In this document: positions 2,429 through 55,518 of the stretch, one piece after another
How the letters are laid out: every line of letters begins with the position of its first letter
How positions within the stretch are numbered: position 1 is the stretch's first letter
Program-made: the position numbers and the translations under genes
Notes under the pieces: model-generated
The model's database searches: none
What the model saw: the letters and a program-made list of their open reading frames with translations, nothing else
What the model was told of the DNA's origin: nothing
NCBI GenBank assembly: GCA_951406725.2
Contig: OX597837.1
Location: forward strand, 41,106,001-41,170,000
Reading direction: 5' to 3'
Origin: Octopus vulgaris
Lineage: Eukaryota
DNA: 64,000 nucleotides

Positions 2429-3029
2429 AAAGGCGGCGACCTGGCAGAATCGTTAGTACGCCGGGCGAAATGCTTAGGGGTATTTCGTCTGCCGTTACGT
2501 TCTGAGTTCAAATTCCGCAGAGGTTGACTTTGCCTTTCATCCGTTTCGGGGTCGATAAATTAAGTACCAGTTACGCATTGGGGTCGATATAATCGACTTA
2601 ATCCGTTTGTCTGTCCTTGTTTGTCCCCTCTGTGTTTAGCCCCTTGTGGGTAATAAAGAAATAGGTATTTCGTCTGCCGTTACGTTCTGGGTTCAAATTC
2701 CGCCGAGGTCGATTTTGCCTTTCATCCTTTCGGGGTCAATAAATTAAGTACCAGTTACGCACTGGAGTCGATGTAATCGACTTAATACCTATGTCTCTCC
2801 TTGTTTGTTCTTTCTGTGTTTAGCCCCTTGTGGTAGTAAAGAAATAGGTTTTTCGTCTGCTGCTACGTTCTGAGTTCAAATTCCGCTGAGGTCGACTTTG
2901 CCTTTCATCCTTTCGGGGTCGATTAAATAAGTACCAGTTACGCACTGGGGTCGATGTAATCGACTTAATCCGTTTGTCTGTCCTTGTTTGTCCCCTCTGT
3001 GTTTAGCCCCTTGTGGGTAGTTAAAAATA
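2429..3029 (+). mobile_element. SINE family B with a tandemly triplicated ~184-bp body
   Basis: One head (AAGGCGGCGACCTGGCAGAATCG) is followed by three units starting GGT(A/T)TTTCGTCTGC at 2479, 2664 and 2847. Each unit has a B-box-like GTTCAAATTCC and the GCCTTTCATCC..GGGGTC block. Confidence 0.9.
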
Positions 3030-3962: not shown

Positions 3963-4071
3963 TACATGCTTATGTGGGTGATGCATATATTTTTGCTTTT
4001 GACGACGAATTATACATAACTGAATATTAAACTGAAGAATTACTCATCATTACATGCGTTCAGAAGAAGTG

Positions 4072-4164
4072 GATGAATAGTGACTTCGAAGTTAACGTTT
4101 GTTAACCGTCGTCGGACGGTCCTACGTTGATTAACTGGCCGAACTTTTCGAAGCCAACAGCATC
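4072..4164. repeat. ~93-bp imperfect palindrome, dual-hammerhead-like family, copy 1
   Basis: Arms GATGAATAGTGACTTCGAAG...GTCGGAC and GTCCTAC...TTCGAAGCCAACAGCATC are centred on 4118. Confidence 0.7.
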
Positions 4165-4424: not shown

Positions 4425-4460
4425 CTATGTGTGTGTGTGCGTTGCTTATAAATAAAAATG

Positions 4461-4554
4461 GTTGATAGTAATTACTTTGAAGTTTGGCTTCAGCCGCCGT
4501 CATCAAACTGTCCGTTGACGGTTACTGAACCGATACTTCGAAGTCACAAGCAAC
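4461..4554. repeat. ~94-bp imperfect palindrome, dual-hammerhead-like family, copy 2
   Basis: Arms GTTGATAG..ACTTTGAAGTTTGGCTTCAGCCGCCGTCATCAAAC and GTCCGTTGACGGTTACTGAACCGATACTTCGAAGTCACAAGCAAC are centred on 4509. Confidence 0.75.
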
Positions 4555-4721
4555 ATCTTCTTTGCGAAAATGAAAAACTTTGTTTAATTTCCTGAAAAGT
4601 ATGAGTGATGCCTTTCTTTAACGTTTGACTGCTTTTACATACAACTAAATGTAACATTAAATATACATACATATATACATACATATATACATACATACAT
4701 GTATACGTACGTATGTATATA

Positions 4722-6246: not shown

Positions 6247-6385
6247 ATGTATATATATACATACATACATACATACATACATACATACATACACCCACAC
6301 ATATAATCGTCTTTAAAGTGATTAAGGGTTAACTTTAGTGACGATTGTACGTATGCCTTTCGGTTTTAAAATGCGACCAGCTTCT

Positions 6386-6472
<87 letters not shown>

Positions 6473-8063: not shown

Positions 8064-8273
8064 GAGGCGCGTCTGTGTCTTAGGTATTGGAATCATTATC
8101 ATAAGATTGCGGTTTCGATTCCTGGACCGGGCGACGCGTTCTGTTCTTGAGCTAAACACTGCTTTTCACGTTACTGTAGTGCCCTCGGCCGGCAAAAATG
8201 AGTAATCCAACGTCCAGTCCAGTGGTGGATGAAGGATTTATACGCCACATAACCCGGCAGAGCGGCTCTTATG
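8064..8273 (+). mobile_element. SINE family C, diverged
   Basis: GGTTTCGATTCCTGGACCGGGCGACGCGTT and GGCAAAAATGAGTAA are shared with 17564-17821. Confidence 0.8.
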
Positions 8274-8280
8274 GTTATTA

Positions 8281-8336
8281 TTTAAGTTTCGACCGGAGAT
8301 GGCTTAGCTTCCTGAAAACTTCGAAGTCACTATCAA
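8281..8336. repeat. Dual-hammerhead-like family, internally deleted copy 3
   Basis: Right arm GAAAACTTCGAAGTCACTATCAA with a remnant left arm AAGTTTCG. Confidence 0.55.
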
Positions 8337-8716
8337 GAATATTGTTGTTTCAGAATAATAAATTTGTACACTGCAAAATTATAGAGTAACCCATGAGATT
8401 AATATAAAACTGTTTTTATTATAACAGAACATAAACACAAATATTAATATATATATATATATATACTCACATGCATATATATATATATACACACATATAT
8501 ATTAACATGGTATATATAATATCCATATAAATCTATTAGGTATTATACAAACTAATATTAAATTCCATATTATGTTATATATGCTCTGTATATACACATG
8601 TAAGTATGGGTTAACGATAATATTGATGTATGGATAAATATACATATATATATATATGGATACATATATGTAAGTATAAATTTTTGCGTCTAGATGTGTG
8701 GGTGTGTGTCTATATA

Positions 8717-8875: not shown

Positions 8876-8930
<55 letters not shown>

Positions 8931-8931
<1 letters not shown>

Positions 8932-9029
8932 GAAGGATACAGGATATACTGTTTCATTCAAGAGAAATCTTCAGGAAGCTGAGCTTCCTGAAGATTTCTC
9001 TTGAATGAAACAGTACTATAGCTCCTTCT
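8931..9029. repeat. Perfect 34-bp-arm palindrome inside (TA)n, each strand reading CTGAAGA...GAAAC
   Basis: 8947-8980 is the exact reverse complement of 8982-9015, with a 1-nt spacer. Pairing extends imperfectly to AGAAGGA/TCCTTCT. Confidence 0.95.
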
Positions 9030-9095
9030 ATATATATATACTCTGCTATGTATTGAGTACCTTACTTACTGTGGTTAACCCCGTATCAACCCGGG

Positions 9096-10255: not shown

Positions 10256-10330
10256 ATATATGTATATTAAACTGAAAAATGAATACTTTTGTTGGGCATA
10301 TATATTTATTACACTTTATCAAGATGAGAG

Positions 10331-10375
10331 GTTGATAGTGACTTCGAAATTTCGGTTTACTAGCTGACGGCAGAC
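10331..10375. repeat. Dual-hammerhead-like family, single arm, copy 4
   Basis: GTTGATAGTGACTTCGAAATTTCGGTTTACTAGCTGACGGCAGAC aligns with the left arms at 4072 and 4461. Confidence 0.65.
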
Positions 10376-10444
10376 GACGATTTAGTAAATTAACACATTA
10401 TATATTCCACAAACATATATATGTATGTATGTGTGTGCGCGTAT

Positions 10445-11154: not shown

Positions 11155-11302
11155 ATGTGTGTGTGTGTGTCTATGTGTTTATATATTAATGATCGCTCTC
11201 TGCGTCGAGTTGTAAATACAAACAATTCAACATTAAACTGAAGGATTATTCAGTGCTGGTTTTGTTGTTGAGGACATATTTATTGCTGTTTAAGCAGAAC
11301 AC

Positions 11303-11396
11303 TGTTGACAGTGACTTCGAAGCTCAAAGTTTCGGCCCTTTGAAGTCGGTTGGATGACGCCTAAGGAAACCGAAAGTTTTAAAGTCGTTGTCAACA
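11303..11396. repeat. Dual-hammerhead-like family, copy 5
   Basis: Inverted ends TGTTGACAGTGACTTCGAAG..TTTCGG and CCGAAAGTTTTAAAGTCGTTGTCAACA. Confidence 0.7.
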
Positions 11397-11426
11397 CTTT
11401 ACTTGTTAACATATATAGATGGGCAG

Positions 11427-55156: not shown

Positions 55157-55249
55157 CAAGAACAAACATACCAATAAACACACACACACACACACACACA
55201 CTCGTACACACACTTATAATTTTATTTTAGCTGAGAAGACTTTATACTT

Positions 55250-55285
55250 TGTTACTCGGAGTTTCACGTAATCGCTCATCAGACA
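55250..55285 (-). ncRNA. Type I hammerhead ribozyme motif with an intact catalytic core
   Basis: The minus strand reads UGU-CUGAUGA-GCG auua CGU-GAA-ACU ccg AGU-A^ACA. All core nucleotides, three helices and a GUA cleavage triplet are present. Confidence 0.75.
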
Positions 55286-55518
55286 GTCATGAGGAGTATC
55301 CGTTTATATGTTCACGACTATAGTTTCTTATCAGTTTCCATGAAATAAAATACTATTTGACTCTAGCCTTGGTAGTCAAGTACTTTCGTTTACATATATT
55401 TTTATCGTGTAATTCGGTAGAAGGAACCAACGAAGAGGGTCACAAATTCACCACCTTTTCTTTGGGACGGAGATATACGTGACATTTCTTATCTTCTTTA
55501 TCTCATGTAGTAAACTTG

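Follow-up and report, generated by a model that had tools for sequence, protein, structure and literature searches.

A hammerhead ribozyme motif in Octopus vulgaris is very probably a decaying terminal-repeat relic of an old Hydra-clade Penelope-like retrotransposon

Does a complete hammerhead core in the octopus genome mark a ribozyme that still cuts its own transcript, or a remnant of something else? The question is raised by a locus on the minus strand of a 64-kb stretch of Octopus vulgaris DNA (contig OX597837.1, positions 41,106,001 to 41,170,000; hereafter the window, 64,000 nucleotides in full). An initial annotation, made from the sequence alone, described it at 55250..55285 as a stand-alone type I hammerhead in otherwise unique sequence and as the best candidate for a still-active ribozyme in the window.

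Judged by its sequence, the motif is a type I hammerhead (55288-55247, minus strand), and in this respect the initial annotation was correct. Read on the minus strand, it consists of a first helix I arm (55288-55283), CUGAUGA (55282-55276), a short helix II with the pairs G.U, C-G and G-C and an AUUA loop (55275-55266), GAAA (55265-55262), a near-palindromic helix III of the form ACUC-C-GAGU (55262-55254), a GUA triplet with A as H17 (55253), and the second helix I arm (55252-55247); the catalytic core with its short helix II spans 55282-55262. All the conserved bases claimed for the core, C3 U4 G5 A6 N7 G8 A9, G12 A13 A14, A15.1-U16.1, and H17, are present, and the layout confirms the predicted cut between 55253 and 55252. 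With helix I open, the three helices are of 3, 3, and 3–4 bp, and the predicted fold is marginal (+2.3 kcal/mol). Stems of only 3 bp, as first reported, are found in helix I and helix II, whereas helix III is better described as 4 bp around a single base, which would give 3 bp and a triloop in the monomer and 4+4 bp in a dimer. The predicted self-dimer of helix III, at -7.8 kcal/mol, agrees with the earlier suggestion that dimerisation would be needed. The G10.1-C11.1 closing pair, which is highly conserved, although not invariant, among the hammerheads described in PMC4209133, is absent from the window site and replaced by G.U.

A descriptor of the full core and three stems has a single match in the 64-kb window, at this site, while any match was obtained in only 2 of 150 block-wise dinucleotide shuffles (mean 0.013). 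The core pattern alone has three matches in the window against 0.42 expected. The hammerhead is, hence, above chance expectation. Rfam hammerhead models, the check initially proposed, gave no match on 55215-55340 (126 bases) at E values up to 10, nor was there a hammerhead in the whole window among the 150 listed of 545 matches, nearly all of which were to miRNA models and driven by microsatellites. Free folding of the window site did not form the hammerhead and was no better than that of shuffles (z 0.79, 1.53, and -0.79). The predicted monomer probability of the hammerhead fold, 5e-8, is the lowest among six copies folded, although nearest-neighbour folding ignores the tertiary contacts of the core and returns a low monomer probability for all six, including that of the young sister family described below.

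The uniqueness of the site does not extend beyond the window: when 86 bases spanning the motif were searched as DNA against the genome of 2.8 Gb (227 contigs), which is rich in microsatellites, at least 20 further places with 75–95% identity were returned. An nhmmer profile built from 11 other copies of the family, with the window copy excluded, identifies 55216..55295 on the minus strand (model 22-101, E value 1.2e-19) as the 5'-truncated end of a pseudo-LTR, i.e., a 3' terminal repeat, of 80 bp, which includes the hammerhead and ends just past an AATAAA (55221..55226, minus strand). On the plus strand, at 55327..55398 (model 79-145, E value 6.3e-8), lies an inverted partner fragment of the same repeat, with a one-sided tail and without the hammerhead core, which also matches loci L007 and L016; by eye, what is left of its helix I arm may lie at 55312-55319. 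The two fragments, 55295-55216 (-) and 55327-55398 (+), are arranged head to head, and a (CA)n/(TG)n microsatellite (55178..55213) is found at the end of the insertion. Rather than standing alone, the site represents a terminal repeat in truncated form, accompanied by an inverted partner, from what is referred to here as the old family.

Head-to-head pairs were found at 9 of 22 distinct loci, the window among them; in most, one arm ends near the AATAAA and the other has a tail of 45–70 bases. An inverted arm together with a one-sided tail has been described for Penelope-like elements (PMC8557442). Copies of the old family have the hammerhead, the AATAAA, and the tail in common, many end in microsatellites, and most are short with no coding sequence nearby; a degenerate exact pattern for their hammerhead retrieved four copies. 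There is no tandem array at the window site. The family profiles detected no second hammerhead in 94 kb (the window and 30 kb beyond it, upstream on the minus strand), and tblastn with two sister proteins detected no coding remnant over the same distance. Since no coding frame adjoins the hammerhead, the site does not represent an intact autonomous element.

Contigs from sequencing runs aligned to 55205-55515 were family relatives only, none of them spanning the site, and have no bearing on its expression. One contig of 447–502 bases, with a depth of 134 and 94 in runs X5 and X6 (whose RNA label is a guess), matches window 55344-55380; it bears an old-family tail, is less than 90% alike, and comes from another locus, possibly as a family remnant within an abundant transcript. 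The one-sided tail itself includes a bulged hairpin (5 bp + 4 bp) at window 55358-55382 (+) and at L094:3328-3358. It folds alike in the young family, L019, L016, and L007, while the window version is changed and folds differently.

The parent element was approached with the DNA upstream of one copy, which gave 41 matches, 30 of which were examined. With the query's own locus left out, 23 of 29 loci have a hammerhead remnant in any orientation, and in 21 of the 29, found by upstream DNA alone, a same-sense remnant lies downstream. One of 13 long loci, L060, includes an inverted hammerhead (6312-6256), a second hammerhead (6317-6392), a body of 2.6 kb, and a third hammerhead (8921-9000), and the body between the hammerheads contains collinear but broken remains of a reverse transcriptase (RT) and an endonuclease. 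Hammerhead-bearing pseudo-LTRs around RT and endonuclease are thus found at the level of the family (L060), as are 5' truncation, the inverted second arm, the one-sided tail, and the microsatellite target. A 67-aa frame from the L060 body yielded 5,048 genomic candidates, with open frames of up to 727 aa, 150 of the candidates being scored. Broken frames matching the 727-aa frame of locus L094 are present in 8 of the 13 long loci; the matches to L060 (E values 5e-24 and 1e-19) are collinear over RT and endonuclease, and L066 is matched with an E value of 1e-34. Pfam gave a single sub-threshold and unrelated match on six short broken frames, and a homologue search with the 67-aa fragment returned nothing. 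The comparisons with L094 link the old family to broken coding remains of RT and of a putative GIY-YIG endonuclease.

L094:3414-6690 (G000:C14:74656001-74665500) represents a young family of Hydra type, with the 727-aa open frame and a 3' region of 1 kb. Of 7,996 candidates scored, 1,667 are homologues of the frame, and the frame itself shows, by eye, the motifs RWK, DKT, YRDD, CxxC, and CxH. Pfam found no match in the frames of L094 or of a second sister locus, L093; PF01541 (GIY-YIG) was above cut-off in one of five homologues scanned, P0002, which is 42% identical. The motif layout of the sister frames, by eye, fits Figure S2 of PMC8557442. In the PDB, a sequence search with L094 reached E values no better than 0.68 and 0.89. 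The Hydra clade is defined by RWK, DKT, a CxCx5C linker, and CxxC/CxH motifs (Craig et al. 2021, PMC8557442, section 11). These motifs were read by eye in the sister frames L093 and L094, and the linker also in the old-family locus L062; the second linker Cys is replaced with Phe in L094 and is intact in L093. On the basis of motifs read by eye, the family would be a Hydra-clade, C-terminal-endonuclease Penelope-like element. Upstream of the L094 frame, at 2840-3010, there is a long perfect inverted repeat with a hammerhead-core-like pattern in both arms. Contigs of four runs, again with a guessed RNA label and with no silent control, cover 24–30 of 30 bins of the young element's frame.

Hammerheads in the terminal repeats of Penelope-like elements, their dispersed truncated copies, and the Hydra form are already in print. 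Several features of the window family recur in the Hydra rows of PMC8557442 File S2: Hydra-2_aMil has the same helix I core, CUGU/ACAG, helix III of the type ACUC-N-GAGU is shared, with Hydra-1_aJap and Hydra-2_aJap having the same stem III as the window copy, and three of the six novel Hydra rows compared have U.U at the base of helix II, as does the old family. Microsatellite targets, the inverted second arm, and the one-sided tail are likewise common to the Hydra clade as described there and to the window family, and Hydra-1_cRog is among the closest Hydra-clade systems with pLTR hammerheads (PMC8557442). In contrast, helix II is of 2 bp in the window family and of 4–7 bp in the six Hydra rows compared, none of which has the A.A found at the helix II base of the young sister family, and the hammerhead given for Hydra-1_Obim is a different sequence (PMC8557442). 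The window copy itself differs from the Hydra-clade elements in that it is a relic of 80 bp, non-coding and damaged in helix I. The minimal metazoan hammerheads of Penelope-like elements (Cervera and de la Pena 2014, PMC4209133) share the type I topology, the short palindromic helix III, and the predicted need for a dimer, and also occur as dispersed single or opposite-strand copies from truncated elements; as presented there, however, G10.1-C11.1 is a conserved pair, A9 is followed by an extra base, and helix II is mostly long, whereas in the window family the pair is missing and helix II is very short.

How far the window copy has decayed was assessed against 21 old copies found without using the hammerhead, 8 loci lacking a same-sense match having been dropped; the profile used for detection itself contains the core. 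At 14 of 74 positions (19% diverged), the window copy departs from the column majority of this set. Only 3 of 6 helix I pairs are left because positions 1.4–1.6 differ from the family majority. The helix I duplex, predicted at -1.4 kcal/mol, is the weakest among the six copies folded; four other old copies range from -5.2 to -7.8, and the young family has -3.5. Position 10.1 is G in the window copy and U in 19 of the 21 old copies, so that the G.U pair, which is present as annotated and had been taken as a weakness of helix II, is a chance gain over the family's U.U; in 15 of 20 family copies, 10.1 and 11.1 do not pair.

All 11 core bases are kept in 5 of the 21 old copies (24%), near the 18% expected from the per-site mismatch rate, and a complete core is therefore unsurprising and no sign of selection. 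Homologous copies that keep the core, whose absence would have helped to refute the initial annotation, are present in the genome, but what they indicate is descent from a transposon and not a conserved host ribozyme. Core mismatches in the old copies are fewer than those of the whole 3' flank (33/228, 14.5%, versus 126/494, 25.5%; p 0.0007), although the core is not better kept than the near flank (51/260, 19.6%, tallied by hand; p 0.15). No pairing covariation above that of shuffles (209/500) was detected in 20 copies, as expected for neutral decay from few source elements.

In toto, the window hammerhead very probably belongs to the truncated terminal repeat of an old Hydra-clade Penelope-like retrotransposon, and is likely an inactive relic, in decay ever since it was inserted. 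This reading draws on the repeat family, the insertion of two arms head to head next to a microsatellite, the link to coding remains of RT/GIY-YIG type, and the damage to helix I; the lower core mismatch relative to the whole 3' flank, the step of G.U towards a canonical pair, and the intact helix III count against it. Following the model of PMC4209133, the active element would have produced an RNA with two hammerheads whose palindromic helix III arms pair into a dimer, and the dimer would cut after GUA, so that the element RNA is trimmed from a longer transcript ahead of reverse transcription. Judging from PMC4209133 and PMC6765202, such hammerheads would release element RNA by way of helix III dimers. 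At the window site, an aborted insertion may have left about 80 bp of the end and the inverted second arm beside the (CA)n tract, after which neutral mutation would have spared the 11 core bases by chance and taken three pairs of helix I. Cleavage here would be negligible because these three pairs are gone and no partner is nearby; poor cutting, or none, is predicted for this copy. Its rank as the best still-active candidate holds in that it is the only window site with a full core and three stems, but the likelihood of activity is unsupported, given a core common to 5 of 21 old copies, the weakest helix I of those folded, and the lack of a partner in 94 kb.

The same origin could be combined with residual activity, i.e., the window copy might still cleave weakly, as a dimer in trans with family RNA or with a protein-stabilised helix I, while having no selected function. 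The full core, the GUA triplet, the G.U at the base of helix II, and the intact helix III, with its predicted self-dimer, are consistent with this, and a helix II cut to one G-C pair, or to none, can cleave in vitro according to PMC544870. We consider it improbable in view of the 3-bp helix I, the monomer probability, which is the lowest of the six, and the distance to any second family hammerhead (none within 94 kb); moreover, a single minimal motif did not cleave in vitro and dimers gave low cleavage in the assays described in PMC4209133.

A role for the host, in which the window copy was domesticated as a functional ribozyme cutting a minus-strand transcript, is very unlikely: the core is kept at 11 of 11 bases and position 10.1 has changed towards pairing, but the core is kept in 24% of old copies anyway, L018 and L024 likewise have G at 10.1, the copy has diverged by 19% and its helix I is damaged, and the open frames of the window include no convincing host exon, which is a weak test. 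Least probable of all is an origin of the site in a non-coding retrozyme or satellite unit instead of a protein-coding Penelope-like element; the shortness of most copies, their lack of nearby coding sequence, and a type I hammerhead within a repeat, as is reportedly typical of metazoan retrozymes (PMC7229834), would suit it, but metazoan non-LTR retrozymes are non-coding units, there is no tandem array at the site, the family sequence runs upstream into collinear RT and endonuclease remains, and L060 and L066 largely refute it.

As a relic of the retrotransposon, the window site is ordinary because it is a damaged copy of an old repeat with predicted poor cutting, and it matters little in itself, given that terminal-repeat hammerheads of Penelope-like elements and their scattered copies are well described. 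Where a genome is rich in repeats, activity cannot be read from the completeness of a core. Of more use, though met along the way, is the young sister family: its frames are nearly intact, its unusually small hammerheads occur in thousands of identical copies, and the question whether and how such ribozymes cut is better put to it than to the window copy. The hammerhead in which the L094 element ends has A.A at 10.1-11.1 and a GCAA loop on a helix II of 2 bp, and is 84% identical to that of the window over 38 nt. A 39-base stretch of the L094 hammerhead has 3,352 exact genomic copies (reversed control, 0), and in these identical copies 10.1-11.1 is A.A, in contrast to the U.U of the old family. 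We speculate, at somewhat less than even confidence, that the Hydra lineage spreads with a stripped-down hammerhead, unpaired at 10.1-11.1 and with a 2-bp helix II under a four-base loop, which would cleave only as a helix III dimer. If so, the young family would be a natural test of a minimal helix II for a genomic hammerhead, and the window copy its fossil. Among the papers listed in a literature search, none concerned this family or A.A at 10.1-11.1. Short-helix hammerhead variants of this kind may already have been described by Lunse et al.

Other repeats in the window have hammerhead-like features. Copies of a palindromic family at 4–11 kb (4070-4150, 4440-4560, 8230-8340, 10330-10380, and 11300-11400) include, by eye, degenerate hammerheads whose palindromic helix III is 10 bases long, some of them arranged head to head. 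The resemblance of the 55250..55285 motif to this family, as initially annotated, extends to the architecture; judged by eye, it is a separate family, unmatched by the profiles of the window family and missed by a descriptor allowing two core changes with a helix I of at least 4 bp, while a genome search with one of its copies, which skips common words, returned only the copy itself. With a different palindromic helix III and the same architecture, it likely derives from another Penelope-like family. At 8935-9030, two head-to-head hammerhead cores (8952-8974, minus; 8988-9010, plus), both without the 3' helix I arm, match by eye the hammerhead of L095, another young family with a 710-aa frame; this family, too, has U.U at the base of helix II. 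Finally, 2479-3029 consists of three tandem copies of a 183-base, SINE-like repeat, presumably an octopus SINE, which recurs across the window.
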